From Schmidtea polychroa (taxonomy: Eukaryota): 64,000 bases of DNA. The notes beneath the pieces were generated by a model. The model did not search any database. It saw nothing but the letters and a program-made list of their open reading frames with translations, and was not told the origin of the DNA. Below are positions 17,990-64,000 of this stretch, piece after piece. Every line of letters begins with the position of its first letter. Within the stretch, counting starts at the first letter, position 1. Where the stretch lies: assembly GCA_044892525.1 (NCBI GenBank), contig CM097887.1, positions 8,246,001-8,310,000 on the forward strand. The letters run 5' to 3'. The translations under genes and the position numbers were made by a program.

Positions 17990-19837
17990 TGTAATAACAT
18001 TAATTCTAGTAAACGGTTTTCAGGTTTTGACTATTAGTTTCTTAACCAACGTTCGATAACATTGACGCTAATAAATTTATTTTAAAATTTTTATCATTAA
18101 TTTCATAATAAAGGGTCGATAATATTAACGAGATTAAATCAATTTCAAATTTTCGCCATTATTTTCTTGATAAAAGATAAAACCCCTCTGCCATCCACTG
18201 ATCAGATTTGCGTTCCTTAGTATTGAGGCACTTTGTTGTGATTGCGTAGGGTAGTGATGAAAAACAGGAATGGAAAGACCACTGAGGGGTATAAATTAGG
18301 GTATAGCAAGTTTGACGAGAGGAAAGGAAAATTTTTTGCAGAGGTATGGGGTATACAATTTGTGTCCTACCAGTTACCCCTGATTTACAATCTATGGGTT
18401 GGGTGGTCGCGAAACTTATCCCAATCTTGATGATGTGTAAATAAAATCCAGGTGACCTGCGTGGAGTGTCGGGCGTCGGATTCATCGATAAATTCATTTT
18501 CTTGTATAGATGTCGGAACCGAATTTGTCAAGGACTGATACGAAGCCGTGTTTCTCTTGCGCGGAAAAGAACGCCACGATGAAACAACTACGTACTGAGA
18601 TTGGGGCTCTTAAGAAACGGGTCAATTTAATGGAAGGAACGTGGTTCTCACCACCACGGATGAAAGAGGCAAACCGGAGTATTTTACGCCTGGAACACTG
18701 TCGAGACAGTTTGCTGAAGGAAAATCGAAGCCAGCGACTCACTTCACCACGTTTATTCCGAAGCCGAGTTACGAAAGCGAGTTGCCGAATACTCCGTCAC
18801 CGAGGATACTAGAGTGTCTAAAAGGTCTTCATGCTCGAGTAATAGAATCGAACTATCTCCGTCACAGACTCCCGATGTCATGTATGTCGGTACGAGTACA
18901 ATTCCAGCTCAGACATCGAAAATGGCACTCTTTCGCTGGATCTTGCAGTTTCGTCAATAACACTTGTTCCTATAATCCGATCAAAACGGAAGCGTCTCAT
19001 GCGTGAAGAACGAACCAAACAAAGACGAGACGAATGAGCTGCTGCGTGGCCGCGCTGTTTGCAGCTCCGATCTCTATCAAGCCCAGATCCGATCCAGTTC
19101 TAGCCGTAATCGATCCACCTTTTTACCGGATCGTACCGACCACGGACACCCCAGTTTTGATCGATTCGCAGTTAGAGATGGATGTTGAGGCTCTAATGCG
19201 AGAAACTGAGGATACTGGATTTTGATCAACCAAATCAGAAGTGTATGCGAAACTTGCACCGTCTCAATATCGTAGATCAACGTAGTGTAATAGAGATTCC
19301 CAGTAGTACAGACTCATCCGGTGTTATAATTCGTGTCGACACATTTGGTTGTGAGTTACTTTGAACTTATGTGTGATGAATATTTCTATCCGTCGAACTG
19401 TGTAAAAGTAAAGTCAATGTTTTATGTAATGTATTAGTTTCCGTTCGTTAAATTATAAGTTTATAGTTCATAGAATTGTCTTTTGCGAATCGATACGAAG
19501 GTGGAATGATGATGTAAATGTGAATAAGATAGTTTGCAATCAACCTCGTTGGACTAGGGGTTGTGAGTGTAGTATTACACATAATTAATATGGATTTAAG
19601 GCCTTCTATCAGCATTCCTGAACCCGTATTGAGAATACAATGAGGAGTAGTTCTAACACAGGAGCTCACCTGCTAATGGATTACCAGCTATTATGTACAG
19701 CACCAATATGGTCTTCACCATGGGTACATGGGTGGTTTAACGGCAACAGTCATCACAAGCGTTTAGGAAGGAGTCTACTTGACTAGCTCGAATACCCCTG
19801 ACATCTGAAAACCAGACACACTCCTAAGCGCCCAACA
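17990..19837 (+). mobile_element. Long LTR (~1.85 kb) containing an ORF; probably a 3' LTR, related to 56401-58261
   Basis: Preceded by purine tract gaaagggtgaa (17979-17989); starts TGTAATAACATT and ends CCCAACA; shares the ORF family and the ccttctatc..gagtagtt..agctcac block with the 56.4-58.3 kb LTR. Boundaries are inferred. Confidence 0.6.
18510..19225 (+). pseudogene. PCFSC/EGTWF-family ORF, copy 1 (frameshifted)
   Basis: KPCFSCAEKNA..MEGTWFSPPRMKE..LEHCRDSLLKENRSQR. Downstream frames recover LHHVY, PDVMYVGTS, KRKRLMREERTKQRR and an acidic C-terminus, all matching 56974-57726. Confidence 0.8.
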
Positions 19838-20640: not shown

Positions 20641-20659
20641 AAATTAATCATCAACGAAT

Positions 20660-21745
20660 TTAAAAATTTTTATTTTTACAAGACTAATCCTGAAAATTGC
20701 CATGAAAGTTTGAGCCATTATGCAGGAACCCAACACGTCTTGAGTGTGTTGAACGAAAAATATTGGAATTTGAAGGCCAAAGTAATGATCAAGCAATGTG
20801 AGACAGAATGCGCAATGTGTAGCAAAAGAAGCGCTAAAGGAATGAGTCAAATAAAGGCACCGTTACCGTCGTTCAGGGTTTCAGAACTATTTAGAGCCTT
20901 TTTTCACTTGGCAGTAAACTTTGCAGGACCATTTGAAAATAAAGTAGGCAGAGGAAAGGTGAGAAATAAAATGTTTAAAGTCACGGGCGGTGCATATTGA
21001 AATGGCATATGGGTTGGATACAGATTCATTCATTCGAGCTTTTATGAGGTTTGCAGCGAGGCGAGGAATGCCAAAATTGATGATTCCAGACAATGGCACA
21101 AATTTTATAGGCGCCACTTCTACAGTAAAGAATTTTGTAATCGACAACTATAAAACTCAAAGAGAGTTGTCGAAGCATCAATGCAGTTGGATCTTCAATC
21201 CTCCATCAGCACCGCATTTTGGGGGAGTTTTTTGAGTCCATGATTAAATCGGCAAAGAGAGCAATGAATGCAATACTGATAAGTGCAGAAGTGACGGACG
21301 AAGAATTGGAAAATGTTTTGACAAGGGCTGAAATGTTGATAAATTCGCGGTCATTAATAGTTCAGGCAATAGACAGCAAGGAAGACGCTGTGCTAACACC
21401 AAATCATTTACTAATTGCCGGATGGAAAGGAGAAGCTGTAAAAAATGTAGAAGTGAAGAAAATGTCAAGTACGATGTTTCTGTGGAAACGAATTCAGGAG
21501 TTAACTGAACACTTTTGGCGACGATGGATGAAAGAATTGGTTCCGTGCTGAAGGCAAAGGGCAAAATGGAATAAGATAGATGATGCTCAGGCAGGGTCAA
21601 CAGTGTGGGTATTAGACAAAAAGAATGAGTATAGAAAGTGGCCAATGGGGACGGTAATCGAAATGATACCTGGAGAAGACGGAAAACCACGCGTGATGAG
21701 AATTAAATGTGAAGGAAAGACTTGTTTTTTAAAATTTGGTAATTT
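20660..21745 (+). pseudogene. BEL/Pao retrotransposon integrase plus C-terminal domain remnant
   Basis: HHCC (CHESLSHYAG...CAMC), FAGPF, RFAARRGMPKLMIPDNGTNF, WIFNPPSAPHFGG.FESMIKSAK, LTPNHLL, FWRRWMKELVP, WPMG.V.E..PGEDGK.RV; contains stops and frameshifts. Confidence 0.9.
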
Positions 21746-22851: not shown

Positions 22852-23367
22852 ATGACAACCAATCCAACTCCGAAACCCGCACTTAAACCATGTTTCTCGT
22901 ACTTGGACAAAAATGCTGCCCTCTGGGCACAAGTAGAAATCAACCTTTTAAAGAAAAAGATCGACTATCTGGAGGGGACGTGGTTTACCCCCATCCAGAT
23001 GAAGGAAACCAAAAAGAAGTTGTTGGGGGTCGAACATTGCCGCAACAACTTACTTGAAGAAAATCGGGCACAGCGTATGCTATTGAAGGAACAATCGCAG
23101 GCGTTGCACAAGATCTACAGGAAGAGATCAACAGGAAGATTGTCAGCCTTCCCGTATTAGAAAAAGATAATGTGTACGGTTTGCAAGTGGTGTGTGAAGC
23201 CCGTTCTCTCTCCCACCATTCCCGAAGTCATCATGACTACGATTAGTCCGGCTCCCGTCATACAACTCAGAGTCAGCAAGGTAACCGAAGCCCCTATAGT
23301 AACCACTAAACCGAAACCGAAACAGTCAACCTGGGTCGAACGCACCAAGCAAAAACCGAGGCCCTAG
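22852..23367 (+). pseudogene. PCFSC/EGTWF-family ORF, copy 2 (in-frame TAG at 23158-23160)
   Basis: ORFs 22852-23160 and 23170-23367 share one frame: KPCFSYLDKNA, LEGTWFTP, EHCRNNLLEENRAQR, CKWCV...PEVIMTT, KPKPKQSTWVERTKQ. Confidence 0.8.
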
Positions 23368-24323: not shown

Positions 24324-26290
24324 ATGTCAAAAGAAAAAAGAATTGTTCACTCAAGACGAGCCTGTGCTCAAAAAGCAATTTCACTTTTATGGGCGGATAA
24401 TTCTGAGGACGAAATGGAAAACCTTGATGAGGAAGATGTTACCCTGATTGAAAATGACATTGAAATGGGTATCGACGAAACAATAATAGAAGGTATATAA
24501 GCTAGCTACAAATTAAAATCAGCATTTATGGTGACCAAAGTTTTCTTTTTATGTTTTTAGACATAGATGTTGATGAGGAATCTAAAGACTTATCTGATGA
24601 GTCAGGTACATTATTTCGATTTCCTAATATATTTCAATCGAATTCGTATATTTGTTTCTGTTGCCATTTCAGAACGTGATTCAGATGTGTTGCATTCAAC
24701 GGCTTTAAATATAAAATGGCAAAAGAAAAAACGGAGATTGTTGGAATTCCCTACACCTACAAAACTAGTAGATTTCGGAAAAGTGAAAGTGGATATTGAA
24801 CCTGCAACTGCCTACTCTTCATTTGAAATCACAACAAATTTTGAAGATCTTGTAACACTCATTATTGAACAAACTAAATTGTATGCTCAACAACAGGGAA
24901 TTATATTCGATGTAACAAGTGAAGAGATAAAAGCATTTCTGGGTATATGCATAATTATGGGCTATAACAGATTACCAAATCTCCGTGACTATTGGTCAAC
25001 TGACAGAGATCTCCATGTAGATGCAATTGCCGATGTGATGACAGTGAAAAGATTTGAATTTATCCTAAAGAATTTGCACTTTAGTGATAATGCTCTTCAA
25101 CCACATAAAGACAATCCGGAATACGAAATAGCGTACAAAGTACATCCACTAATAAACCATTTCAACAAAGCGTTTCAAGCTGCAATGGAAATGGAAAATG
25201 AAATGTCAATTGATGAACACATGATTAAGTTCACTGGGAAAAGTGCAATGAAACAGTACGTCAAAGGAAAACCCATACCCTGGGGATTCAAAATGTGGGC
25301 CCGAGCATCATCACACTCTGGATATGTTCATGAACTTGACATGTATCAAGGCAAAGTTTATAATGAAGGTCGCCAATTTGGTCTAGGTGGAAGTGTGGTA
25401 ATGCATTTGGCAAAGAGTCTTCACAACACAAACTGTATCCTGGCAATGGATAATTTCTTCTCCTCGGTAGAGCTGTTTTTCTATTTACGTGAAAACGGTG
25501 TTCAAGCTATTGGTACTATCAGAACATCACGAAAACATTTGCCAGATGATGTACGTGCTAACAAGTGTATGAAAGAGGGTGATATTTACTCTTACGTTAG
25601 CACTAATGGCAGTATCTCATCAATAAAGTGGATGGACAAACGTCCTGTCACTATTCTATCCAATTATGAGACTCCTTTTGAAACCACGACCGTTATGAGA
25701 AGACGAAGAGGTACGGCTGGTAAAATGCCTAAAACTGTTCCAAAAATGGTTTCGACGTATAATTCAATTATGGGAGGTGTTGACATTGCAGATCAACGAA
25801 AAGAGGCATATGGAATCGACCGAAGGTAAGCAAAAATTTACAGCCTCTGTGCACATTATAACTCTACATACATTGTTTGTTTTGATTTTTTTACTTAAAG
25901 GTCAAAAGTGAAGTTCTACTTACGCATTTTCTTTGACCTACTGGATATTGGTGTGTGTAATTCCTATGTCATTTTCAAGAAACTAAATGGGGCAACCTAA
26001 TGAAGGCTCTTGACTTTCGCAGATCTGTGGCGCTATCTCTCACTGGTCGTTACAGTAGTCGTCAGAGAGAGACATCCGCCAATCCTCCTTCAAAGAAAAT
26101 TCGACCGAGTAATGCTGCTTGTCCTACACCACAACATTTACCAGTATTCACAGAAGACAGAAAGCGATGCACATACTGCAGCACCTGAAGACATTATTGC
26201 CGCAGCAACATTAAATGCAGTTCATGTGATGTTCACCTCTGTCTGAATGCTCAACGTCAGTGTTATTCACTTTATCATATAATTGACTGA
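24324..26290 (+). pseudogene. piggyBac transposase with three introns (exons 24324-24492, 24561-24605, 24673-25825, 25901-26290)
   Basis: GT-AG introns of 68, 67 and 75 nt keep the frame. DDD motifs SIDEHM, AMDNFF, MGGVDIADQ; C-terminal Cys-rich domain CTYC..CSSCDVHLC..C..YH. One frameshift at ~25990 (G4 run) and an in-frame TGA at 26186-26188. Confidence 0.9.
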
Positions 26291-34700: not shown

Positions 34701-35064
34701 AATATACAATCTTTGCTCTTCATTTTCATAAGACTATAGATCAATAAACTCAAGTTAAATGTATTCATAGAAAATTAAGAAAGAAATTGCAAATAATAAA
34801 CAAAAATTGGATAAAAGATTTTAATAGAAAATTAGTATCTAAAATAAATTAACAAGAATTTACCATGGAAATAAATAAATTAAATTACCAAAATAACCTA
34901 TTGCAATTTGCAAATCTCTATCAAAATCTGTCATTAAATATATTATACAAATTTTAATATTAGATTTAATAAATTATCTTTTCGCATTATTATGTAAATC
35001 TTTAAAACGAGCGTGAATTAAAAAATTTGTTTAAATTTAAAAAAACGTTTTAATTTAACTCACG

Positions 35065-37170
35065 ATGGATCAAGAGTGGCCAGATTTAACTCTAGCAAAT
35101 CAAGCTAAAGTGTCGAAGAAAAATGTCAAAGCAACTATCGAAAAGGAAACCAAAATCGTAAACGTTAACAAAGAGAAAAAAGAAACAAATTCCGATGCAA
35201 AAACTCAATGCAAACCAGTTGACATAAAGACTGCTATACGGGAGTTCAACGAGAAGTTTGCTTATCAATATGATTTTGATTCTAGTCGGGAATATAAGCT
35301 AAAATCTCATTGTTCAGTGTCAAAAGAATGCGCGAGCACCGGAGCATCAGTCGAAGAATCCTTTAAAAGCATGATGTTTTTGGAAAGCATCATTTGCGTT
35401 CGAATGAATTTATTGTACTTCTATTTTCACGAAGCCAATCTAAGAAAAGACTCATATATGATAAAAAATATGGATAGCAATGGCTGGATACCATTGAAAA
35501 TAGTGATGGATTTCCCTCGTTTGAAGAGAACCAAACCAACATTTAAAGATATTTTCGATGTCTGCCAAAAATTATTGCTACCACCATTTACAATCCAGTA
35601 TGGATCTGTAGGAAATTCCTATTTAGAAATCGATGAAACGAACAGCTTGATCAGAAGAAATGACATGGAAGACTTTGAATCAACATTTAGAGGATTTGAA
35701 ATATCAAAAGAAATTGATTTGAAAATGAGATCAGAGTTGCCATTCCCAAATTACTCATTTTCCTATTTTGAAACCGAATTAGAACCTTTAATAGAAAGAT
35801 TTATACCAGATGTTATACCTCAAATAAAGGTGGAAGAAAATGATGAAAATATAACCTTCGAATTTGGAGCGAACGAGGAAACTACAGTTCAATCTAAGAA
35901 AATTTACCGAAAAAGACGTACAACAATGGAGTCACAAAGCGACTTAGATGAAAGTAATGTTTATTTAATAACATTGAACGGTAAAACTGCGGAATGGCAT
36001 GAAATAAGCGACAGTGATTCTTTTGTCGAACAAACATATCCTGATTCCGAAAGAAGAGATTTGTTGAAGAAAAGTTTGCAAGAAACATTCAACATCAGAA
36101 GCAGATATCAATCCTTTTCCAGTTGTTCGACATACGACAGTAATGATGAATCTGATTCATACTTACCAGATTCTCAGCTTAGTATTGAAGAAAAAATGTC
36201 TTTGATCAATACAAACAACAATCCTTCGGTACTAATTCAAAAAATGAAACCTTTAAGTCAAGAAAATCAAGAATATGACTTCCTGAATGAAGGCGTCATT
36301 AGTTCATACCACAACCCAATTGATATGTTTAATTCCAACTTTTTGCGTATTCCTAACTATAAATCCGACGAATTGGATAAATTATTGGAGAACATTATAT
36401 TTGAATACAAGAAAAGCTATGTTCCGCAGGAGCTGACAAAAACTATAAGGAAACCTAAAATTCGACAGACCATTACAAAAACTAGGAACCATTTGAATTT
36501 TTACGATTCTGAAAACGACGATATTCGATCAATTGATGATCCGATGATGGGATATTACTTGAATAAAAATAGAAGAAAAAGAAATTCATCGTCCAGCAGT
36601 TATAGTCAATATCCCGACTCAGGCAAATTATTGTCAAAGGGTTTAGAAATTCCACATCAAAATCATCCTGGAGAAAAGCTATTATCGGATGAATTTAAGC
36701 TTAATCTTTATTTAGAATTCCGAGAAAGTGCCTTAAAAGATAGAAAATTGACCGGCTGTGGCCGATCTGCTGATATGAATGCTCTATTACGTTTCTGGTC
36801 GTTTTTCTTGAGAGAAAACAGTCAGAAAAAGATGTATCGGGAATTCCAGGAATTAGCTTGGGAGGATGCTGAACACGGATATCGCTATGGTGTTGAATGC
36901 GTTTTCCGCATGTTTAGCTATAAGCTTGAAAACAAAGACAGATTCAATATGGATGAATACAAGGACTTCCAAAATAATGTATTGAAAGATTTGAAAATGA
37001 ATAGCCTGTATGGTTTGGAAAAATTCTGGGCATTAAGGCAATATGGTAATCTAACACTTGAAGCCTTACCTGAAATCGAGGAGAAACTCAAAGAGTATAA
37101 AACTAAAGAAGATTTTCGCAAGAACTTTGTTCCTCCACAAGGATTTTACGGCTATAAACTTCTATTTTAA
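35065..37170 (+). CDS. LARP1: La-related protein 1 (La motif + DM15 cap/TOP-binding domain), intronless, 701 aa
   Basis: La motif [38 protein letters not shown]15 repeats [44 protein letters not shown] and [10 protein letters not shown] closely match LARP1 family consensus. Confidence 0.93.
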
Positions 37171-40317: not shown

Positions 40318-42389
40318 GTAGCACGTCAATTGCGCGGACGCCAATTGCGCGGGTCCAACTGCGCGGTAGGCAATTGCGCGGGTAGTCAATTGCGCGGCCG
40401 TCAACTAATTATTATTAAATAAATTATTAAATGGGCTTACAGTTGCTATGAGGCCTCAATTTGCGCGGCCGTCAATTAATTATTATTAAATAAATTATTA
40501 AATGGGCTTACAGTTGCTATGAGGCCTCAATTTAGGCCATCAGGCCTGCCTAGCCATCGAGCTGCAACTGTCAAGGCGGGTATATAATGCGAGTGTTTTT
40601 TCACAATTGACGAAATTGTAGTCATGTCTTTAGAGTTTGGTAAAAGCGAGAGGGGCAACAAAACTTTAATTTATAAGAATTTCGAATACGTTAAGGAATG
40701 CGAAAATATGTGTGGTACTACCGCATGGCGTTGCAGGTTCAACAAGAAGTTCAAATGTAAGGCTCGAGTTGTAACCGATGACAGTAAAGTTGTTTGTGAG
40801 AAACAACCGGAACACACGCACAGTGGTAACGTCGCAACAGCAAAAGCACGAAAGGCGGTAGGAGAGATGAAAGAAATGATGGGCGCGTTGATGGCTACAC
40901 CTAGTTCCTCACAGGCGTCCGTTTCGGTGGCACTAGATGATCACGTGCTGATGGCTTTGCCTAAACGATCGTTGCTGACTAGGACATTGCAGCGAAAGCG
41001 TCAGAAGATTACGAAAGAAACCAACAACGGTCAAGAGCTACCGGCTATTCCAGGCGATCTTCGCTTTGATATACCTGACCGATTCAGGCATATGATTCTG
41101 TACGACTCAGGACCAGGTGATGATCGAATAATCCTGATGGGCTGTTTAGAGCTTCTAGATGAATTGGCTCGTGCTGATGTATGGATTGCCGACGGGACAT
41201 TCAAAGTCGTCCCGAGCATTTTTTTTTCAACTGTACAGCTTCCATTTCAACTTCTCTTCCGGTATCAACCCTGCTGGTCTGTACTGCCTCATGACGAATA
41301 AGACGGCTGAAACCTACGGACGCGTTTTCGCTGAAATTCGCAACCTCGTTCCTTTGGCTTCTCCAACGACAATTTTGATAGACTTCGAGAAAGCGGTGAT
41401 GAACACAATGAGTCTATCGTACCCGTACGCAAGAGTCACAGGTTGCTATTTTCACCTCTGTCAAAGTGTTATTCGTAAGGTCAACGTGATAGGACTAAAG
41501 ATTACCTACGAGAGTAACGATGAGGTCCGTGGGTACGTTCGATGTCTTTCCGCACTGGCGTTTGTTCCCCCCGATGATGTGGTGGAAGCTTTCGAGTTGT
41601 TGGTTGAAACAATGCCTGCCGATATCGATCATCTGGAAGAGCTCACGTCTTTCTTTGAGTTAACGTATGTCCGCGGACGTCGACGTCGAGGACGGGCCGA
41701 AGTGTATGCTGCAGCGATGTTCCCAATATCTATCTGGAATCAGCACGCCGGTGCATGCGAGGGAATTGCAAGAACAACCAACTCAGTTGAAGGATGGCAT
41801 CACGGCCTTCAGACACTGTTCCAGTGTAGCCATCCGACTGTCTGGACGTTCATGGCAGGATTAGAACGGGACATGAATCTACAAAAGTCAAAGTACTTGC
41901 AAGGGGCAACCGGTTTGGTGCAGCCGTCTCGTAAGACGTATCGTCAACTCAACGATCGCGTTGTAGCAGCTGTAGCAGCTTATGGTCGTACGGACATTCT
42001 GACATATTTACGTGCCATTTCACATCTGTCGCACTGTTAATTAACATTGATATTCATACTTACTAGTATTATTTAAATTGGACTTTTATATTGATATTGA
42101 TATTTGTTTGATTAATTTTGTGATAGTTTATTTAGGTAATATATAACCCACTTGATTTTGCAAAAGTGTGATTTTTGGTTATTTGTGACGAAAAATAATG
42201 AAATAAATACCATATAAATATAAATAACAAAATTTGGAAACAAGGGAAAAATGTAATTAACCACCTCATCAGTTTACTATCCGCGTAGTTGGACCCGCGC
42301 AATTGACGCCCCGTAATTGACTACCCGCGCAATTGACGTCCGCGCAGTTGGACCCGCGCAATTGACGTCCGCGCAGATGACATGGTTTC
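40318..42389 (+). mobile_element. Mutator-superfamily transposon, Phantom type with repeat-array TIRs (2072 bp)
   Basis: TIRs built from 5-7 copies of a ~15-bp (gt)caattgcgcgg motif; 9-bp TSD tttattatc / tttattata; 71-bp internal tandem duplication at 40391-40532. Confidence 0.88.
40624..42040 (+). pseudogene. FLYWCH + MULE DDE transposase (~471 aa), single +1 frameshift
   Basis: FLYWCH (LIYKNFEY...TAWRC...CKARV...HTH), WIADGTFK, LIDFEKA, GCYFHLCQ, RTTNSVEGWH. A T9 run at 41219-41227 needs T8 to restore the frame. Confidence 0.9.
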
Positions 42390-47048: not shown

Positions 47049-47970
47049 AATACACAATGCTTTAGCGTGTTTTGCATTAAATACTTTAATTTCCGGTTAT
47101 TTTTTCGATGAAAAATAATTTAATCTCGACGGTCCTGATGGATGTATTGGAGAGATTTTAGCAAAGACCTATTTATATCTTCCAAGCGAAACTTTGAAGG
47201 AGAAAGTCCCATGATTTAGGTAGGTTTCTCTTTCTACTATGTACTTTTTCTGGTGTTTCCATCCAGCAGAATGAACAAACCGCGGTGTCAATATGTTTTC
47301 CAGGAACATCTTATTCCCAATCATCGCAATTCACGCCGTTATCTTTACACTTTTCAGTAAGATATTGCGAGCATTCATGTTAGCAGCAGTGATTTAGAGA
47401 CAAAAAATTCTAGCGCGACGGGTTTATGCGAATAATAGTCAATTCGACATTGTTCCCCAAATGAAAACAGCCATTTTGACAACCTGGAATGGAATTAATC
47501 AAAATACCCAATACACAATGCTTTAGCGTGTTTTGCATTAAATACTTTAATTTCCGGTTATTTTTTCGATGAAAAATAATTTAATCTCGACGGTCCTGAT
47601 GGATGTATTGGAGAGATTTTAGCAAAGACCTATTTATATCTTCCAAGCGAAACTTTGAAGGAGAAAGTCCCATGATTTAGGTAGGTTTCTCTTTCTACTA
47701 TGTACTTTTTCTGGTGTTTCCATCCAGCAGAATGAACAAACCGCGGTGTCAATATGTTTTCCAGGAACATCTTATTCCCAATCATCGCAATTCACGCCGT
47801 TATCTTTACACTTTTCAGTAAGATATTGCGAGCATTCATGTTAGCAGCAGTGATTTAGAGACAAAAAATTCTAGCGCGACGGGTTTATGCGAATAATAGT
47901 CAATTCGACATTGTTCCCCAAATGAAAACAGCCATTTTGACAACCTGGAATGGAATTAATCAAAATACCC
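47049..47970 (+). repeat. Apparently perfect 461-bp tandem duplication (47049-47509, 47510-47970)
   Basis: Both copies start aatacacaatgc and end caaaataccc; no differences seen by eye. Confidence 0.92.
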
Positions 47971-51874: not shown

Positions 51875-54800
51875 TATTTTTTTAAACTAGAACTAATAAC
51901 TCCTCGTTAGCCATTATAGGTTCTCTTTTGTTCTGGCTTCGCAAATAATATCGATTCACTTCAATAACTTTAGTCTTTCAACTCACACATAATCTAAATT
52001 GCCAATATTTTAACTTTTCGCTTTAGTTTCAATAAATTTATTCTAGCACAAATATTCCTATCAATACAGATTTCTCTTAAATTCACGATGCAACAATAAT
52101 TAAATTTCTTTTTAATAAACTCTTCCGCAACTTTGATCACGTCCGGCTCACCAAATATCTTGGGTATATTGTAGTTTGTCAGTGATTATAAGGCTGTGTA
52201 GTACTAGTCTGACTCCGAACGTGTTATTTAATAACAATGTAACATATGTATTGGACTTCATCTTCTATTTACCAAAACGCTAACAAGGTAAAGGAAGTTG
52301 AGAACGTTTAAAGAGTAAGTCATCGACAACGAAAATGATAGAACTGAAGTTGAAGATATTGTCGACAACTTAAGCCCTTCCATCAGCAGCTTAGTATTGA
52401 AAAAGAAAATCAGTCAAGCAGTAGTTCCAAGACATGGAGTTCACCTACTAACAAATTTTCATCAACACCATCAATATCAGCTGTAATCAAACTCCGCGAG
52501 TGTGATGGTGAAAACTAATAATCATTTGGTGCTTAAGAGAATAGTTGCTATAGGCAAGGTTTACCTTATTCCTTAATTTACCTTACAAAAATTTGACAAA
52601 AATTCCTCTAGGTGTCAACAAGTAGATGAATTAAATTTGTTATGCTTTCTTAGAATTATTTTTCTTATCACTATTTCTAGTGTTAACTATGACCATATAT
52701 GAATTTTTGTAAAAATGAATCGCAATATAAACGGAAAATGATATTTATGCGGTAGAAAATGTTTTCGATGCCAAATTAATTCAGAGAAGCAAGGCGCATT
52801 CATTTAAATGCTGAGCAGAAAAGTTTATCAATATATCTATGTGAATCACAAGAATTTAATTAAGAAATAAGAAATCTAAAAGTGTCAGATTTTCATGAAT
52901 TTAAATTTAATATCAACGTTCTTTGAAATATAACGCCATAAAAAATAAATGTTTTCAATTTAATTTCTATGATAAATTATTAGCACAACTACCCATAGTT
53001 GTGGTATTTTGTAAAGGAATTTGTGCATTTTTAGGTTGGTATTTCCCATTTATTTGTTTAAATCTACTCATTTTTCATCATTCTTTCATTATTTTCACTG
53101 CCAATTTGTGATAAAAATAATTCAACATTTTGCATGTCAATAAACAAAGGTTAAACATAATGATTTCACAAAAAACTGAAAGAAATAACAACGAAGTGTG
53201 ATACTAATCACAGTGTTTTGTCGCGATTCAATATCATTCCACTTTATTGTCATTTCAAACTGTTACAAATTTAAATGTTTTCGATTGAAACCTTAATATT
53301 ATAGGAATGGTTCGAATTTAGAATCAAAACTTGATTAAAAAATTTGTCATGAAAATGTAAATTTGAATACAAGATCCAACTCGGAAAGCCTGAATTATAG
53401 TATTATATTTATCTTTTGGTTTCACCTTTGACCTTTTTTTAATTCAATAATTTAATTTATAACGATATTTCGGCACAGTCTTTATTAAATGTGTATTTCA
53501 ATCGTCATAGTTATTTTAAATATTATTGAAAATCTGGAATCGAGTATAAAAGGAAAACGGCGGTTTGCGCTAATAACATATATTATAATGAATTTTTCGA
53601 TGAGAAAGGAACAATGATGAATTAGGGAGAGTGATTAGTGGTAACAAAAATATTGTGTGTTGCGAAAAGGAGACAGGGTAAGGAAATTGATGCGTAGAAA
53701 AAATTTTTACCTTTACGGTATAACAAGACGGCTTAACAACATTTAAAGTGGCGCCTTGTACTTCACATGATTAAAATATTAACTTAAGCTAGCATTAGAT
53801 ATTTGCATTTATTAAAAGTACTTATTTTAATAAGTAACTAATCCTTGTATCATTAGTGTGACAGACGTACTACAGTAATTATGGACACGCAGAGTTATCA
53901 TTTAAAAATCTAATTTAGAAATTGTGACTAAGTTATAATAAAAGATCTGTTAACTTTCCCCTCCAAATAAATATAAAGAGATAATTGTAAACAATGTCAT
54001 ATAGAATCAAACCTAATATAATTGTTGGGGTTAGTTGGTTGTCGGTCATTTATCAAATCAATAACTACTATCTGACTCCGATCGTGTTTTATTCAATGTT
54101 GGGCTGAGTCGAAAATTTAATCGTTGAAAAATAAGAAAGTAGGGAAGTAGAACATTAAGAAAAATAAAAATAAAATAAATAAAATCAGAAATAAAATAGA
54201 ATAAGGTATAAGGAAAATAATAATTAAGACATAAGAATTAAAACAAAAAATAAAATTAAGAAAAGATTAAAATAGAACAAGTTGACAAATAAATAAAGAG
54301 GAATTCAAGAAATAATAAGGAAATTAAGGAAATAAATAGAAAAACATATTAAAAATAAAGAAAATAAGGAGAAAACAACCTAAAAACAAGAAAATTATAT
54401 TAAATTAATAGAAATAAGCGGTACTCAACTCTGATTGGTCCGCACAAATAAGAATTTGATATATATACAACTACCAAAAACATTAAATTTACTGTTAACC
54501 CCGAGCATTTCATAGGTAAGAAAAAATGTTTACTGTTTCTACTGTTAACCCCGAGCATTTCATAGACATCTACAACTCACGGAGACTTATTTCAAGGATC
54601 AGCAATACAAGTAGAGCAACAGTTAATTCGAAAAACTTCACAGCAATTCGAACTCAGTCACAGCAATCGACATTCGACGAATTATCATCAGACTAATTTG
54701 GAACGACTAACGTTAATTTTCCGATTCAGCCTAATTCCATAGTAAGGGATTTTTATTTATGATATTGTTTTTCGAAGTTAATAGTAAATATGTATATTTA

Positions 54801-54991
54801 ATGAGTAATTAAACTTTTAAATTTAACCAGACTCTCTTTTCATTTGATCCTGAATAACGATTTTGATAAAGTAAATAATTTAAATGTTTAAAAGTATTTA
54901 TTGGTAACAGGTGAACTCTTACATAATTTTTATGGATATTTATTTTGAAGTGATAGTTTTATGATTTCTAATATTAACGAGAAACGTGGCG

Positions 54992-55109
54992 TTGAGATAC
55001 TCCATGTCATGGTGTGAGGTGCCTTCGGGAGCTCAGCCGGTGGACATGGAGTATTTCAATCACGCAGCTAGATTGGGCCGAAATGTGAAGGCTTCTTCAC
55101 GGGTCCAAT
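54992..55109 (+). other. Two adjacent strong predicted hairpins
   Basis: ttgagatactccatgtc / gacatggagtatttcaa stem with an inner cTTCGg loop (54992-55059), then attgggcc / ggtccaat with an inner gtgaag-gctt-cttcac (55072-55109). Confidence 0.55.
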
Positions 55110-56400
55110 TGCTGAAGGACTTAAAATCTGTCAGAGTACCGAAATATAGACCGAAAGGAAACCTTATGAAATTTTCGAAAATAGGATATGTGCTTCACAG
55201 CGACTGAGGGAGTTCTCCTATTAACTCTGTATTGTCCAGAGTCGTCTTATAAGACATTCATGCCACTTCTGTCTATAAATCCGAACTTACCATGTGGGGG
55301 AAGATACCATTAAACATCCATCGCTGGTTTTTCTAACATATCGAGAAGTTGAAATTGCATTCGGTAGATTTTTGAAAAAGTAAATCTAATTTAGGTCATC
55401 TCTTTCAGATGCGACATCCAAATCTTAGCATATGATGAGGAATTTACAATAAAGGAAAAGTAAAACATAAAACCACAATAATACTGTATTCAATCACATA
55501 TATTAACAAAATCTGGTAATACCCATTGAATAATTTTCATGCTGTCGCGTCGAAATATCCACTACTGAAATATGCTTCATAGAGTCTAGTTGGCTGGTTC
55601 GTAGAGATCTTCCATCGTTCAAAAGCATCCAATATTGAGGAAATTACGAGTCGTAGTAAATAAATCCAACATCATAAGCTCAGATGGGAATCGACACGCG
55701 ATGTAACATTTGCAGTTCGCTCAGTACGGTTGATAGTTACAGATAAAATTTCCATCGAATAGGCACCCATACATACAGACATACTGCTAACATAACTATG
55801 AGTAGCGTCATCCGGTCAGAAATATGCATGAGAAACAGCAGAATCATTCCGAATGCCTCTCACCGCAGGGAATGCCGCCATGTGTCACCCTCTCTAAGAT
55901 TCTTAGTGTGTGAGTAGTAATCAGTGGTCCTATTAGATAATGCTGACATGAGATGTGACTTCCAGATGACTGACTCTTAAATTTCACTACTGATAAAGGT
56001 CATTCGTACCACTAAAAAGATAAGCCAAAATAACCAGTAACCGACTACTAAGATAAGAGACTCTCTAAAGTGCACTCATTAAAGATAATTTTGCTTAAAT
56101 TAAATATTCTAAATAAAAATCGAAATTGTTGAAGGGGTATTTTAATTAATAACCGAAAATTCAAACCAAACTTTATAACTAAACCATAGGAAGTTTCACC
56201 TAAGTGTTGTAGAGGTTTATCGTAATTCTGATTAGATGTTACAAATAATAGTAGTAGCCTTTGAGCCAAATTTAAATTAACTAAAGCATCCACAGGAATT
56301 TTTGGGTTATAAAATAGCTAGTAATATTGTACTTAAATTTCTCATATTCCATGTAAACTACGTATCGCAATAGAAAACTAAATCCGATAACAAATTATTA

Positions 56401-58261
56401 TGTAATTACAATGTTTTTTTACGATGCCATATTTCTACGACGATATCACCGTATGGTATGGATAAGGGGTGATCATAAAATAGTGACGTATAGTTTATAC
56501 GAAATTACGAGTTGTTACTTATTCCGCTACTCGAGGTAAGGGTGCAAGTTTTTACTAGTCGCATTTGGTCCAAAAACCTTATTTTGCATTAGAATAACAA
56601 CAAATAATCAGCGAAATTTAAACGAAGTGTAGTATAGTGTATTTGTAATGAAATAGGTTTATTCACTCCGGCATGAACAAATCCGTAAATTGCCTTTATG
56701 TGCGATAGATAGAAATCCAACTCGAACGCGATAGACGAAAATTAAAATTTTTACAAATAATTTGCATTCGTCAGGGAAGCAATCAGGGCGTTGAGGAATA
56801 ATTTTTGTAAAGGATACGTAAAATATTAGTAATCAAGGGTGAAGGGAAGGATCCTGTTTCATCGACTCGTCTTGTTTTCTTCCAGCACTAAGTATCCAAT
56901 AGCGAATAAACCGTATATCTGATCCGAAATTTTTAGATATAGTCACCATAGTTTTCTTCTTTAGCCATCCATTATGTTATCAAACAACAAATCAGCTTTA
57001 CGTCCCTGCTTCTCCTGCTCAGATAAAAATGCAGTGATTAAAGATCTTCAAGCCCAGATCGGTCGATATAAACGAAAAATCGACGAGCTGGAAGGGACAT
57101 GGTTTAGTCCCGCTCGGATGAAGGAGATCCAAAAGAAGCTCGATCGTAGCGAGCATTGCCGGGACGCGCTAATATCTGAGAGCCGTGCCCAAAGAAGTCT
57201 AATCAGAGAACAATCCGAGGCACTGCATAAGGTTTACGTGCAGGCGGCTACAACCCGAAAGATCGTGCAGATTCCCATCCGAGAGGCCGATGACATCTTT
57301 CCGCCTCATCACAACCTTTCCTCGAATCCATCTCCACCGTTCAAGAGACCGTGCCGAGACTGCGTCGAAACCGAATGGTCCCCCAAGCGTCCAGATGTTG
57401 TCATCACGGGTACCAGTAAGCCCCCCACTGCTAGTCCATCTGTATCAGTCACCCTTCTACAAGTGGCATCTTCAAACAAACCCAAGCGCAAACAACTCTC
57501 TCGAGCAGAGCGCAAGAAGAGACAGCGCGAGCGCGCCACTGCAAAGCCAAACATCCCATCAACAGAGGACTCAACCAACGGTGGTAACTCTCACGTGTCC
57601 ATCGACCTAACAACGGGACCCTCAGCGCGAATCATATCAGCCGCTGGCGTAAGGTGGGAAGAGAACGCTTCCGAGTTTTTCAACCTCGACGAATTATTCG
57701 CCGACACTGAATGGGAGAAACAATAAAACCCCAGTGGCGGTCAGGATGAGGAACAAGGATCCGATCTATGTTGATTATGATGTTTTCTCTTCTTTCGACA
57801 AACATTAGTAAAGTGTACAGCTGAATCCTGGTGTCATAACGTTGAAATTAATAAATCTTGTTGTCTTACACGTTTTCGTTCATGAATAATTAGACTTTAA
57901 TTAAGTGGGTTGAGTAGAGAACCCGCAAGATCTAGTGAGAATTTCCCAATTTGCATTCAGCGAATTCCTGATAGGTGGTTGTGTAAGGAAATGGACGTAA
58001 GCCCTTCTATCGGCAGTCGTGAATGGGAAGTCGAGGCCTCAGCAAGGAGTAGTTTTAAGGCAGAAGCTCACCTGCTTGCTGGCGTCTCGCCTGCATAGTG
58101 CAGTACCAACGTGAAGTGATTCACGGGCACTATGTTGGAAGAAAGTTATGTGGGGTTTCACTCCAGGTTGACAAATCGGTGGCACCTTTTATTCGAGATG
58201 GACAATCAACCCTTAGACCCGCCAACATGGTAGAATGGTCAGCCGAGGTGTGACCCCAACA
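56401..58261 (+). mobile_element. 5' LTR (~1.86 kb) of a complex Ty3/gypsy element, containing an ORF
   Basis: Starts TGTAATTACAAT (cf. TGTAATAACATT at 17990) and ends CCCCAACA just before a PBS; same layout and length as 17990-19837. The left boundary is inferred. Confidence 0.65.
56974..57726 (+). CDS. Intact 250-aa PCFSC/EGTWF-family protein (coiled coil, CxxC, basic tract, acidic C-terminus)
   Basis: Open ATG-TAA frame, GC-richer than its flanks, with motif-level conservation across two diverged paralogues in the window. Confidence 0.85.
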   Translation: MLSNNKSALRPCFSCSDKNAVIKDLQAQIGRYKRKIDELEGTWFSPARMKEIQKKLDRSEHCRDALISESRAQRSLIREQSEALHKVYVQAATTRKIVQIPIREADDIFPPHHNLSSNPSPPFKRPCRDCVETEWSPKRPDVVITGTSKPPTASPSVSVTLLQVASSNKPKRKQLSRAERKKRQRERATAKPNIPSTEDSTNGGNSHVSIDLTTGPSARIISAAGVRWEENASEFFNLDELFADTEWEKQ

Positions 58262-58268
58262 TGATTTT

Positions 58269-58286
58269 TGGGGGCTCAGCCGGGAT
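58269..58286 (+). promoter_or_regulatory. Primer-binding site complementary to tRNA-Pro
   Basis: TGGGGGCTCAGCCGGGAT matches the canonical tRNA-Pro PBS TGGGGGCTCGTCCGGGAT at 16/18 and lies 7 nt after the LTR-terminal CA. Confidence 0.85.
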
Positions 58287-58603
58287 CTACAATCGATCGA
58301 AATTTCTATTAACGAATGCGAAATTCACCGAGATTTTCATAAAAAATTAAAGGGATTTATCACATCGATTTTCTGTTTTCGACCGACCATTGCTTGACGA
58401 ATGCCAATTGACTATTGATTATTAAATTATATTAGGAACTAAGTAGAGAAAATCAAAATGTGGATAATAGAAAAATTAAGGATATATATAAATAAAGGAG
58501 ATAAAGTAGTCAAATTAAATAATTAACAATGGTTAAAGAAACCAATTAACGAATTAACTATTAATTTACTACATATTATTAAAACATTACTTTTCCAACA
58601 GCT

Positions 58604-59089
58604 ATGACAGAATTCGCGAACCAAATGCAACAACTGCTCAAGTTTATCGATATAGAAAACGACTCCCTAACAACACTGACGCATAAAAGAGAAAAAATCA
58701 ACGCGATATTACTGCAAGCAATCGGACAAACACCAGTCGTACCTAATCATCTGATATTAGCCACAGGCCTAAGTCGCCCAGATGGAAAAATAAACCCCGA
58801 AACCGTATATCAGTGGTATCAAGAGAGATTGAACCACCCAGCATTAAATCTAGATTATCAGCGTCTAAAAGACTCACTAAATACAATACCAGATGCAATC
58901 GAACAAAAAATACAGGAAAAAGTTAACCAATTACGAACTTGTATAGCCTGTAAACTCCGTCCTATTCGCGTATTATTCTTGCCGTGTGGACACCTCAGTC
59001 ACTGTGAAGAGTGTGTAAAAGACCTAAAAAGATGCACGATGTGCAAATATGAAATAAAAGAGACCCATATGGTCTATTATGGCGAATGA
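58604..59089 (+). CDS. 161-aa protein with coiled coil and C-terminal IAP/MDM2-type C3HC4 RING finger (putative E3 ligase, no BIR)
   Basis: CIAC-x11-CGH-x3-CEEC-x6-CTMC; a pyrimidine tract and AG lie directly before the ATG; AATAAA at ~59194. Confidence 0.85.
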   Translation: MTEFANQMQQLLKFIDIENDSLTTLTHKREKINAILLQAIGQTPVVPNHLILATGLSRPDGKINPETVYQWYQERLNHPALNLDYQRLKDSLNTIPDAIEQKIQEKVNQLRTCIACKLRPIRVLFLPCGHLSHCEECVKDLKRCTMCKYEIKETHMVYYGE

Positions 59090-59705
59090 AACGGCCGGCG
59101 ATGTAACAGCAAGTATACGATGTTTGAACAAGAATGCATGAAATTGTTGAAGTAACACGTACTGTTAATGATTCAATCTTTATGTTTATGATAAATAAAT
59201 TCGTCTTTAAAAAGTTTTGATGATTAGGACTAATAAAATTTGCATGACGAATGAATATTTGCGTGTTTGTTTTGTTTTATTTTTTTTGTGGAATCAAATG
59301 AAGAGAGGGTTGAATAACGTGGAATTAGTCCCAATATAGACCGCAGGGGTACAAACCGAGCCACCTTCGGGCGGTACGTCTTATTGCAAGAACCCGTTGG
59401 GAGGGGATAACTGATCAACCCAAGTAAGAAGCGTAGGGCGGGGTACCATCGCATATGATGAGAAGTTTTTGCGACATGACTGATCACCATGCAAATGTAG
59501 AAATGGATCATCGCGATCGTCGTGCGTTTTGAGCAAGGGGGGAAAGGGGAAACACTCCCAAGCGGTAAAGATTAAGTCGACAAATTAAAAGTAGACAGAG
59601 AAAATGGTAAACTAGAGTAAAAGAAGAAAAGAGAAATAGAAGCATGCAGAGCGAGGAATATTGAAGCCGAGCTGTCGAATAATCCAGCCGGTCAAGGAGG
59701 AAGAC

Positions 59706-60179
59706 TGAGCTGTTGAATAGTGCCAGCCAGTCGTAAGGTCGAGTTGTGAAAAGTCCAACCGATCAGGAAGGAGGAAGATTGAGCTGTTGAATAGTGCCAG
59801 CCAGTCGTAAGGTCGAGTTGTGAAAAGTCCAACCGATCAGGAAGGAGGAAGATTGAGCTGTTGAATAGTGCCAGCCAGTCGTAAGGTCGAGTTGTGAAAA
59901 GTCCAACCGATCAGGAAGGAGGAAGATTGAGCTGTTGAATAGTGCCAGCCAGTCGTAAGGTCGAGTTGTGAAAAGTCCAACCGATCAGGAAGGAGGAAGA
60001 TTGAGCTGTTGAATAGTGCCAGCCAGTCGTAAGGTCGAGTTGTGAAAAGTCCAACCGATCAGGAAGGAGGAAGATTGAGCTGTTGAATAGTGCCAGCCAG
60101 TCGTAAGGTCGAGTTGTGAAAAGTCCAACCGATCAGAAGGAAGAAGATTGAGCTGTTGAATAGTGCCAGCCAGTCGTAA
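59706..60179 (+). repeat. 74-bp tandem array (6 full units + 31-bp partial) in the retroelement leader
   Basis: Units start at 59706, 59780, 59854, 59928, 60002, 60076 and 60149; a degenerate half-unit lies at ~59668-59705. Confidence 0.97.
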
Positions 60180-60834: not shown

Positions 60835-63800
60835 ATGATGAAGTCGTGTAAGCAAATGCAACACGAGATCATTTTTTCATTTTAGATATCAAGCCAATCC
60901 AGCCAACCAAGACAATCCAGAACCTGCATAAAGGAATTCGAAGAAATCGACAATCAACCAAGGATAAATCCATTCAGAACCCGCACCGAGAGACACAGCA
61001 ACCGGAAGACTCCCGAACGGAAGAAGTATTAGCAGCCATCTGCCAAGGATTAGAAACACAATCAGAACCGAACGCGACCAATTCAATAGCCGCTAATTAC
61101 CAAGAAGCGTAAGAAAGGAATCACGGATAAACCCAATCTTAGATCTTCAAGTAAGCCAGGAGACGTATTATTTTCAGGAGACGAATTACAACAACTCAAA
61201 AGAGGACGATCCATTAAACATCAAAGAGGAATATCACAAGGATCCAGAAGAACCAATCAAGTACCCATATTTGACCAAGAAAATCTCGGATATACCCCTA
61301 GTCGATCTCGAAGTAGAGAAAGTCTGTCCGATATCACTAATAGTTTAGCAACGTCAACCGAAGAATTACCAGCCCAAAGTTTAGTCACATCGTTAGACAA
61401 TTTAAAAGAAACAGACGAACCTAGAACACCAATCATGACGAATGTCGTAAAAACCGACGAGTATAAAGAGAAGTTCAGAGGAGAACCGTTCAACGGAAAT
61501 GCAAACAAGCTAGCAACGTTCATAACTAATTTTGAAGTTTATATCACTGTGTGTGGATGGACACCCGAAGCAATTAGTAAAAGGATGCCGTTGTTTTTGT
61601 GCGATAGTGCATTAGAGGTATATTTAGAAGCTAAAGAGAGAGACACGAAATTAGAAAAGTGGGAAGATATTAAAACATTCCTGAAGAAAACCTTCGGAGC
61701 CAGTAAGCCAATCAACCAGGCGTTGGGCGAACTAGCAAATAGGAAACAAAGAGCAAACGAATCGATAACATTATATGCCAGTGAATTGCGGAGATTAGCG
61801 AAGAAAGCAATGAATGGAAAATTACCCGAAGAAAATCTGATCGGTTATTTCATAGAGGGATTACGCCGAGAAGAAGTAAGAGCCTCAGTAGGTTGTCAAA
61901 TGTGCAAAACATTAGAGGAAGCCATAGATTGGGCTACAAGATGCGAGCTCCACCTTCCAGCTCAAATGAATATTATGCAAGAGGAGGGAAGGATAGCGAC
62001 AGCAATAGCGAAAGCGGATAACGGAGATAACAACAATCAAGAACCGAAAATGAATCAATTTATACCAGGAGCGCACCAAATTTTCAAACCACCACAAGGA
62101 CGATCAAACGGGAATAATGGTAATCGTAACAACCCGAATAATGAGAACAATTTCAATAATCGGCGAAATATGAACGATAACAAGCAGTGCCGAACATGCG
62201 GTAAACCAGGACACTGGGACAGAGATTGTTATAGAAATTCAAATTGTAATCGTTGCGGACGGCGTGGACATACCGAAAATGTATGCCAATTGCGAGGCTG
62301 TTTTAACTGTGGTCAGCCAGGTCACATCTCCAGAGATTGCCGAGAAAGGGGCCAACAACAACGACCACCACAGCGAAATAATAATTATATAGCGAATCCG
62401 CAACGACAAAGTAACCCTAACGAAGGAAAACAAATGAACGTTATGCAGGAAATTTCGCAGATGAAACAGATGATGCAACAAATGATGAGACCAAGACAAG
62501 AATCAGCACCACAACAAACCCAGAATATACGTATGATGAGGAGTACCGAAAATCTCAACAATTATGAAGTGCATCAACATGTACAAGAATGGCAAAGGCT
62601 ACAGGCCGAGGAAGAGAGGATAAAACAAGAACGCAACCAACAACGACAAGAACAACCATTGCGAATAAATATGATGAAGTTAGTAAAAGACATGAAGAGC
62701 CAGTATTGCTACAATTACGGGAAAAGCCCAAGGGTAGTACCCATGACTGAACCAGAAAAAGTAAAGGAAATAACAACGGAAATGAAAACAGAGAATTCAA
62801 CCACGATTTCAAAAGGAAACCAGAGAATTCAGAAAATATTCTGGAAAAAGATAAAGGATAAAATCGAAAAAGAACATAATAAAGCGAAAACCGAGACAGA
62901 AGATGAAAATAACAAGAGCAAGGAACAAACCAGTCAACTAAACCACCAAATGCTACAAGAATCAGAATCAGAAGAAACAACAATATTCGAAAGAAAGAAA
63001 CTAAAGAGAGTACCAAGGATGAGAAACTTGCAAATCAATATGATGAAAAGGACAAAAGATGAAGCATCGTCAGACGAAGAAGAAGATTATGTAAGTAGTT
63101 TGGGTGGAGAAATACTACAGCCGAATGAAATAAGCGAACCCCCAAAAGGGGAAATCAAAGAGGAAGAAAGCGGAAACGAGATAACCAGTGAAAGTGAAGA
63201 CGAAGATATCGAAATAAAGTTGAGAAAAGCAAGGGAGGAAGCGATAAAACAGGTAGCCGAAATACTCCCAGTAGTAGTGAGAAACCAAGAGTTCATCGAC
63301 GTAATACCATTCAGGCGATTCGTGCAAAAAGTGATGAAATTGGAAAGAAACGAGAAAGATCTAATACCAAACGAGGAAAAATCAATTATAAAAAATTATA
63401 TGGAAAAAATGAAGCAGGCCGATACCACGCGGTATGTAATAAAAATTGGAACGAGTAGAGGACTTGAAAGAATGTGGATAAAAAATACAGTCACCGACGA
63501 ACTTTTCGATTGGATACGAGAACATTTGGGAAGTTCGAGAAAGAAAGAATATCTGTATCAATACCAAGGAGAACAGATCAAACCAGATATGCACTTAGTA
63601 GATGCACTAATATGGCCAGGAGAAACGCAAATACTGAAGTTGCATAAAGAAAAACAACCAGCCAACCTTTACGATTGGGCTAAAGATGCCAAGGCAGAAT
63701 ATGATTTTAATATCAAATTGAAATTAGAACAAATAAAACAATGTACTCTGAGACGAAACCTGGATAAGCTGATCAAACAAATTCAAGAACAAGTAGAAGA

Positions 63801-64000
63801 CAACTGGGATTTACTCATCACCAGACGAGCCCCAGCCATGTACGAACTAATGAGCCGGTTGCGAGATACAGAAATGCTCCGAATGAGTGATTGGAGAACC
63901 ATAAATTTGATCCACAAATATGGAAGGTTAAAAGAAACCCAGCCACAGAGGTTGGAAATAACCATATGGTTACCGAACGAAGAAAAACGACGAATAAAAA
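60835..64000 (+). CDS. gag: Ty3/gypsy Gag polyprotein, spliced 5' end (exons 60835-60847, 60886-61108, 61143->64000), runs off the window
   Basis: Capsid-like region (FNGNANKLATFITNFE...GW...RKQRANESITLYASELRRLA) and three CCHC knuckles at 62188-62340. The frame is open from 61090 to 64000 and the first in-frame ATG without splicing is 61435. The ORF track misses it because it has no stop in the window. Confidence 0.9.

Follow-up and report, generated by a model that had tools for sequence, protein, structure and literature searches.

An unnamed, selected protein family encoded in the LTRs of a giant Burro-like retroelement, with a possible role in regulating the element's own RNAs

What is the product of an intact reading frame that lies inside a long terminal repeat (LTR), and what might it do there? 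The question is raised by a 250-codon frame in a stretch of 64,000 nucleotides from Schmidtea polychroa (contig CM097887.1; the whole stretch is called the window here). A preliminary description, made from the letters alone, had assigned the frame to an unrecognised protein family encoded in an LTR and had proposed that it acts as a transcriptional regulator, placed and expressed like foamy-virus Tas, HIV Nef or MMTV Sag. Here, we delimited the element, searched the genome for further copies, and analysed the protein and the signals around its gene. The element spans 54097 to window-equivalent position 84497 (30,401 bp, with LTRs of 4,165 bp) and carries the following features.

54093..54096, plus strand: target-site duplication TCAA, 4 bp; the second TCAA directly follows the 3′ LTR
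54097..58261, plus strand: 5′ LTR, TGTTGG...CCCAACA, 4,165 bp
56974..57726, plus strand: LTR ORF (copy 3), 250 aa, unbroken over 250 codons
58269..58286, plus strand: primer-binding site (PBS), 18 nt, matching the 3′ end of host tRNA-Pro(TGG)
58604..59089, plus strand: RING-finger accessory ORF (Pfam), 161 aa, acceptor at -2, AATAAA downstream
61435..64000, plus strand: start of the Gag(3 CCHC)-Env-PR-RT-RNase H-IN polyprotein, frame open to window-equivalent 72159
window-equivalent 80333-84497, past the window end: 3′ LTR, 26.2 kb downstream, the same as the 5′ LTR at every position

The ORF had rightly been placed in an LTR: copy 3 sits inside a true one (54097-58261) that has an identical 3′ partner and the TCAA duplication, and the proposed comparison of the 5′ and 3′ LTRs of one full element found the ORF duplicated. 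The polyprotein is a single frame: a Gag that bears three CCHC knuckles precedes Pfam matches to Monjiviricetes_fusion (E 3e-70), RVP, RVT_1, RNase H and rve, with env in frame between gag and PR-RT-RH-IN. Further downstream lie ankyrin, TRAF/MATH (both by Pfam) and four unnamed frames, all of them separate ORFs. The element is a Burro-like giant Ty3/gypsy retroelement, as its size, env placement and cargo agree with the part of PMC6431247 that describes Burro/GYPSM1, giant gypsy-like LTR retrotransposons of planarians. Shared characters in that part are a length of >30 kb with LTRs, a three-CCHC Gag, env in frame between gag and protease, and ankyrin, MATH/TRAF and RING cargo. Burro1, known here by that description only, has BIR and BCL2-like domains and carries MATH inside a 4,873-aa polyprotein, whereas MATH and ankyrin are separate frames in our element; Pfam (E 0.001) detected no BIR or BCL2 domain in seven frames plus the RING frame, the Gag part 61435-63000 lying outside the scan. 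Section 7 of PMC6431247, on Burro, names no LTR-encoded protein, and the main text of PMC13524379 mentions neither Burro nor planarians. Among the titles and abstract openings on Burro and on LTR-encoded ORFs, none describes this protein, which Grohme et al. 2018, Repbase or Lee et al. 2026 may annotate.

Several observations accompany the element. A tandem array of 74-bp units (59668-60179) lies between the RING frame and the gag acceptor. The primer tRNA, tRNA-Pro(TGG), has a large tandem gene array with a 475-bp period (G000:C1 from 130901009) and 2190 pattern matches across the genome. A second LTR, 81-85% related, lies at window-equivalent 86822-90761, 2.3 kb past the element's 3′ LTR; its gene copy is open, and the middle of its predicted intron is unalignable to the window LTR. 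At G000:C4:12790027-12813056, three LTR gene copies stand 11.1 kb apart, which suggests a tandem array of shortened elements. Elsewhere in the window, Pfam identified a host frame with La and LARP1 HEAT domains (35059-37170) and transposase frames of piggyBac type (DDE_Tnp_1_7, 24567-25829) and MULE type (40588-42040). Frames 3868-5148 (plus strand) and 13773-16183 (minus strand) resemble, in their motifs, pogo/Tigger and hAT transposases. A decayed integrase-like remnant (20572-21700), with weak Integrase_H2C2 and DUF5641 scores, is probably BEL/Pao, and an exact 461-bp tandem duplication (47049-47970) is either recent or an assembly artefact.

The gene had been counted three times in the window. 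Homologous sequence does start at 18510, 22852 and 56974, but only copy 3 is unbroken; the other two are as follows.

18510..19837, plus strand: copy 1, broken relic in an old LTR remnant; 3′ hairpin at 19597-19732; CCCAACA end with no PBS after it
22852..23355, plus strand: copy 2, broken isolated fragment; no LTR end within 2 kb

In copy 1 the frame shifts near 18737, the first frame ending after 100 codons, and copy 2 meets a stop after 102 codons. The four N-terminal motifs quoted earlier were found in all three copies, LH.[VI]Y of copy 1 in another frame, and the ATG does lie ~1.3 kb before CCCAACA (about 1.29 kb in copy 3 and 1.33 kb in copy 1). The quoted basic-tract pattern holds for copies 2 and 3 but not for copy 1. 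A conserved CxxC followed by P[DE]V did not stand up, as it mixes two frames in copy 1 and is kept neither in family B nor in another species (both below). Because copies 1 and 2 are broken, divergence among the three copies, from which purifying selection had been argued, is no proof of it. A short insertion with terminal inverted repeats (17422-17905) interrupts the old LTR remnant upstream of copy 1.

Selection was instead assessed with genomic copies. A genome search for the gene gave 6987 candidates, of which the best 150 were scored; 148 of these carried no stop, a sample of best matches that is biased to young copies, and many older copies were broken. Among the 30 best matches, 24 formed 12 pairs spaced 25.7-26.2 kb, and in all 11 pairs examined a PBS follows exactly one member. 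Since the copies are paired and only one of each pair precedes a PBS, the gene is present in both LTRs of full-length elements. The unbroken copies fell into two large families, A (that of the window) and B, 34-38% identical, plus rarer types. We then compared 41 distinct unbroken coding sequences (27 A, 13 B and 1 other; broken copies excluded) by pairwise Nei-Gojobori dN/dS, with 178 of 351 pairs usable in family A and 29 of 78 in family B; the unused family A pairs were saturated, had dS >3 or lacked synonymous change. dN/dS was 0.07-0.12 over five dS bins in family A and 0.09-0.21 by dS bin in family B. By region, it was 0.06-0.07 for residues 1-113, 0.09-0.11 for the basic tract, 0.05-0.13 for the tail and 0.21-0.38 for the first linker, the strongest constraint thus resting on the N-terminal domain, the basic tract and the tail. 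Third codon positions held 7206 of 10607 differences between family A pairs, and family A pN/pS was 0.14 in frame but 1.60 and 2.40 when the two remaining frames were read. Choosing copies by protein similarity lowers dN, but it cannot account for 65-84% protein identity at dS from ~1 to saturation. That the open frame has no function and is merely carried by recent amplification would suit a set of young matches chosen by similarity, with older copies often broken, yet this reading is scarcely tenable and already refuted by the dN/dS and codon-position data, the third-position bias and the in-frame pN/pS contradicting it, as does an ORF kept over 35% protein identity and in another species. 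Taken together, these comparisons of coding sequences show that the gene is under purifying selection within families; the earlier claim of selection was right, on evidence other than the three window copies.

The encoded protein consists of two helices (residues 15-40 and 46-99) hinged at GTWF.P, a Pro/Ser/Thr linker, a basic helix at about 166-195 and an acidic-hydrophobic tail. A structure model from a 21-sequence alignment, of low confidence overall (mean pLDDT 62, pTM 0.27), gave confident helices at 15-40 and 46-99 and a helix at 177-189, with the remainder disordered; in this model ~65 residues of disordered linker separate the basic helix from the coiled coil. The basic tract was present in 21/21 aligned proteins. 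Residues 166-195 contain 12 K+R and are in part predicted helix; the tract, which is as Lys-rich as Arg-rich, is Arg-richer in the other species. The tail has 8 D/E within the last 25 residues, where a short helix is predicted, and keeps a hydrophobic-x-x-hydrophobic-hydrophobic pattern (LDELF, IDEMI) that, in an acidic tail, is typical of activation domains. The coiled coil, basic tract and acidic-hydrophobic tail read earlier from the letters were therefore borne out by the alignment and the model.

Homology searches yielded no named relative. With the window protein and 21 members, Pfam returned only sub-threshold coiled-coil matches; a PDB sequence profile gave a single match at E 0.72; word-indexed protein searches at near, shorter and longer lengths gave nothing at E 0.001; and the best ESM Atlas score, 0.84, was not informative. 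A fold search with the low-confidence model found no match at E 0.001 in viral and PDB libraries, and a further fold search found generic long helices only (best Z 5.8), which does not show that the fold is new. The family thus deserves the name unrecognised with respect to Pfam, PDB and fold matches; no known domain was found, no dN/dS near 1 and no loss of the ORF from the 3′ LTR, the three outcomes that the preliminary description had named as decisive against it. A profile search of 1.84 billion representatives did give 16 matches at E up to 0.001, in 14 of which the domain is fused to unrelated Pfam domains, and we read these fusions as gene models into which an LTR exon was spliced by mistake. 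The distant matches are not from this genome (a 94-aa match shows about 40-50% identity). In one of them (P0001), the host part matches exons of a gene in this genome at 73-94%; in another (P0012), the N-terminus has a 73% match to a frame that lies upstream of an LTR gene copy, at a distance of 8 kb. The gene is therefore probably present in similar elements of a related species. Kept in both species were the GTW hinge, the second helix, an N..P..H-like motif, the basic tract and an acidic-hydrophobic patch. The cysteines were not kept, and a zinc-binding role for the Cys/His residues was lowered, as these residues are absent in the other species.

How would such a gene be read? The following signals were located in and behind the 5′ LTR.

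54431..54467, plus strand: predicted core promoter, inverted CCAAT box 54431-54438, TATA 54460-54467; common to both LTR families
54490..54515, plus strand: predicted non-coding exon 1, 26 nt, its putative start 30 nt after TATA
54516..54565, plus strand: conserved donor and predicted 50-nt mini-intron, whose final 26 nt are a copy of exon 1
56951..56964, plus strand: pyrimidine tract and AG acceptor, 9 nt before the ATG
57850..57855, plus strand: AATAAA, 123 nt past the stop, at a distance where a poly(A)-like hexamer is conserved
60868..61434, plus strand: conserved gag acceptor (AG ends 60887) and ATG-free leader of 547 nt

The block CTGATTGG with TATA and AG/GTAA occurs within a few hundred bases of the 5′ end in 16/20 LTRs examined. 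The conserved promoter and exon 1 lie about 0.4 kb from the LTR 5′ end and 2.5 kb upstream of the ATG. Similarity falls off right after the donor in most family A comparisons. In 15/16 LTRs with the promoter block, the end of exon 1 is repeated 44-52 nt downstream; the exact repeat is 25-26 nt long and starts 28-31 nt after TATA in 14/15, the usual TATA-to-start distance, and for this reason we infer a start near 54490. The two exon 1 copies agree within an LTR and differ between LTRs, a pattern suggesting that the spliced 5′ end of the RNA serves to rewrite the repeat. One LTR (L090, near 1373) lacks the repeat, as if it had been removed by splicing or slippage. With a putative start 2.5 kb upstream, the gene would lie in transcribed R or U5, not in U3, and these signals imply that it can be read from the promoter of any LTR, 5′ and solo LTRs included. 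MMTV sag, HIV nef and foamy-virus tas/bel occupy U3 or the region ahead of it, on the upstream side of the promoter elements, and are expressed from the 3′ end of the provirus. The LTR gene shares with them an accessory coding sequence in or beside the LTR, but it lies 2.5 kb downstream of its predicted promoter (relative to a predicted start), and a Tas/Nef/Sag-like position with expression from the 3′ LTR, as first proposed, does not agree with a conserved promoter and exon 1 upstream of the ATG.

The processing signals around the gene were counted against controls. An acceptor lay at most 16 nt from the ATG in 44/54 contexts compared with 286/4450 control positions, and a poly(A)-like hexamer 105-170 nt past the stop in 40/40 contexts compared with 13% in shuffles, the hexamer set having been picked after inspection. 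Since the predicted intron of the window contains 42 ATGs, the ORF could hardly be reached by scanning from unspliced RNA; this long intron also contains four AATAAA. Similar arrangements recur downstream. An acceptor stands at -2 of the RING frame both in the window and in 3/4 other elements. In 4/5 elements, the fifth being uninformative, a conserved acceptor precedes an ATG-free gag leader, which measures 547 nt for the window element and 686-714 nt for three more, and most 3′ accessory frames begin just past an AG and end ahead of an AATAAA. From these signals, it appears that a single promoter and donor serve several acceptor-ORF-poly(A) cassettes in a row, the LTR gene being the first. 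Spliced-leader trans-splicing was considered as the user of the acceptors, but cis-splicing is the likelier in view of the conserved donor. In run contigs X1 and X5-X9, of which X5-X9 are RNA only by guess, neither the window LTR nor L090 had a splice joint; run X6 covers the ORF but also sequence upstream of the putative start, and says nothing on expression. Two pattern searches gave 0 DNA copies of the directly spliced exon 1-ORF form, an uninformative result that is expected if such RNA lacks the PBS.

Two structured RNAs were found in the same LTR.

54985..55114, plus strand: twin-hairpin RNA in the predicted intron, conserved with compensatory changes; candidate response element
58040..58136, plus strand: covarying bulged hairpin and second stem near the LTR 3′ end; common to both LTR families and copy 1

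In the predicted-intron hairpins, 10/50 pairs in family A and 13/29 in family B were changed on both sides, a covariation reached in only 1 (A) and 2 (B) of 500 shuffles and also above slid controls, measured on few, related sequences from which the structure itself was derived. The 3′ hairpin near the PBS had 16/24 pairs changed on both sides across both families. Neither the family A nor the family B profile of the intron hairpins matches the other family's LTRs, so hairpin type tracks protein type, as shared descent alone would also bring about. The upper part of the intronic hairpin (55026-55043) resembles the PBS and may pair with tRNA-Pro. Rfam gave just two chance snoRNA scores on 54000-59700.

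Between elements of different LTR type, the LTR protein is 34-38% identical, compared with 93% for Gag, 89% for Env and 97% for integrase. Relative to the window, one element has a Gag dS of 0.17 and a saturated LTR gene, and another a Gag dS of 0.24 and an LTR gene dS of 1.05. From these distances we read the LTRs as old modules exchanged on similar gag-pol backbones, with unequal synonymous rates as the alternative.

What, then, might the protein do? We propose that it is made early, works in the nucleus as an RNA-binding regulator of transcripts from its own element and shifts their processing toward long RNAs, and we put the probability of this reading at about 0.42. It is favoured because the first cassette is the natural early product, because long RNAs pass many sites, and because the basic helix is paired with a type-specific hairpin. 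The constraint on the N-terminal domain, basic tract and tail, the basic tract kept throughout the family, the conserved donor, acceptors and poly(A)-like hexamer, the ATG-free gag leaders and the covarying intron hairpins also count in its favour. Transcription would start near 54490; splicing would join the short exon 1 to the acceptor at 56964, the first distal one, and the RNA would be cut after 57855, making the LTR protein the default first product of any LTR. As the RING, gag-pol and 3′ accessory frames each come with an acceptor and in most cases with a poly(A)-like signal as well, long RNAs would have to skip or read through several processing sites. The LTR protein would oligomerise via its N-terminal coiled coil, bind the hairpin of its own LTR type with its basic helix and recruit a host factor through its acidic-hydrophobic tail, and processing or export would shift toward long RNAs, as with HIV Rev/Tat or phage lambda N.

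Several points weigh against an RNA regulator. Splicing of the mini-intron would consume the sole conserved donor, so that genomic RNA may need no Rev-type exporter, and the mini-intron itself may license export. Four AATAAA already stand within the long predicted intron, and the hexamers behind the poly(A) count were picked after inspection. The hairpins could be packaging or reverse-transcription signals, and the basic tract, in which Lys is as frequent as Arg, may be only a nuclear localisation signal. Moreover, there is no Rev homology among the family members and no clear export signal in the window protein: Pfam REV matched 0/21 members, although one homologue from the other species, where the basic tract is Arg-richer, has a weak match below threshold (E 0.0013), and CRM1-type export patterns occurred in 0/5 family A/C proteins, including that of the window, in 2/4 of family B and in 4/10 other-species proteins, whose C-terminal parts may be gene-model artefacts.

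The product might instead act on DNA, as a Tas- or bZIP-like transactivator of the LTR promoter in a positive feedback, with a coiled-coil dimer, a basic helix for DNA binding or nuclear localisation and an acidic activation tail, which is the function first proposed but without a place in U3; foamy-virus Tas is listed as a viral transactivator in the relevant passage of PMC3856414. The conserved tail pattern, the low tail dN/dS and the short helix predicted there suit this reading. The long disordered linker between the coiled coil and the basic helix is unlike bZIP, no DNA-binding fold was recognised and the intronic hairpins are left unexplained, and we regard a DNA-level role as unlikely, though a serious contender.

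A counter-defence or host-modulating protein, for example one acting against piRNA or heterochromatin silencing, or a factor that promotes cell survival in the manner of the RING, TRAF and ankyrin cargo, is unlikely as well, a little more so than a DNA-level role. The LTR protein does vary far more between LTR types than Gag, Env and integrase, and Burro1 is derepressed on smedwi-2 knock-down according to a passage of PMC8532177 and is credited, second-hand, with an anti-apoptotic IAP-like region in part of PMC13465017. Nevertheless, selection within families is strongly purifying, not positive, synonymous saturation where Gag dS is 0.17 points to old module exchange rather than a fast arms race, and no host-derived domain was found. 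Very unlikely is a particle-associated nucleic-acid chaperone aiding RNA packaging or the copying of the long stretch from the PBS to the 5′ end. A basic helix with a coiled coil, structured RNA adjoining the PBS and an unusually long distance of about 3.8 kb from the PBS (58269) to the putative start (54490) agree with such a protein, but Gag already has three CCHC knuckles, and the first cassette is where one would expect an early regulator sooner than a late structural component.

The proposed RNA regulator has counterparts elsewhere. Phage lambda N/boxB combines a promoter-proximal early gene, a basic motif, an upstream hairpin and downstream termination signals. HIV-1 Tat/TAR, as outlined in part of PMC7864049, shares with our locus a promoter-proximal early gene, a basic motif, an upstream hairpin in the transcript and downstream processing or termination signals. 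In contrast to both systems, no homology was seen, and the hairpin here lies about 500 nt from the putative start, not at the cap. With HIV-1 Rev/RRE, HTLV-1 Rex and MMTV Rem, as treated in a portion of PMC3856414, the locus shares a small basic protein, predicted here to come from a spliced early RNA, and a structured RNA in an intron, here a predicted one, that long RNAs retain. Unlike Rev, Rex and Rem, the LTR protein has a long N-terminal coiled coil and neither detectable homology nor a clear export signal, and its gene lies inside the LTR of a Ty3/gypsy element, not of a retrovirus.

Overall, an element of a known kind encodes in its LTR a protein family that is real, under selection and unnamed. 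RNA regulators that act in trans count as a hallmark of complex retroviruses. We tentatively suggest, as a possibility somewhat short of an even chance, that a Ty3/gypsy lineage independently evolved a complex-retrovirus-style early/late switch wholly inside the LTR, with promoter, response hairpin and basic RNA-binding regulator gene in R/U5 exchanged as one module among elements whose gag-pol is nearly identical. If so, each type of LTR would chiefly govern RNAs of its own, with solo LTRs as a possible source of the regulator in trans. The regulator logic of complex retroviruses would then have arisen separately in invertebrate Ty3/gypsy elements, and this would account for the ability of a single promoter to serve an interior of 22 kb in which acceptors and poly(A) signals are many. 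Burro elements occur in large numbers, are under piRNA control and have reportedly been linked to regeneration in planarians; an LTR copy whose signals are intact could make the protein by itself and would thereby offer a direct, testable handle on Burro control.
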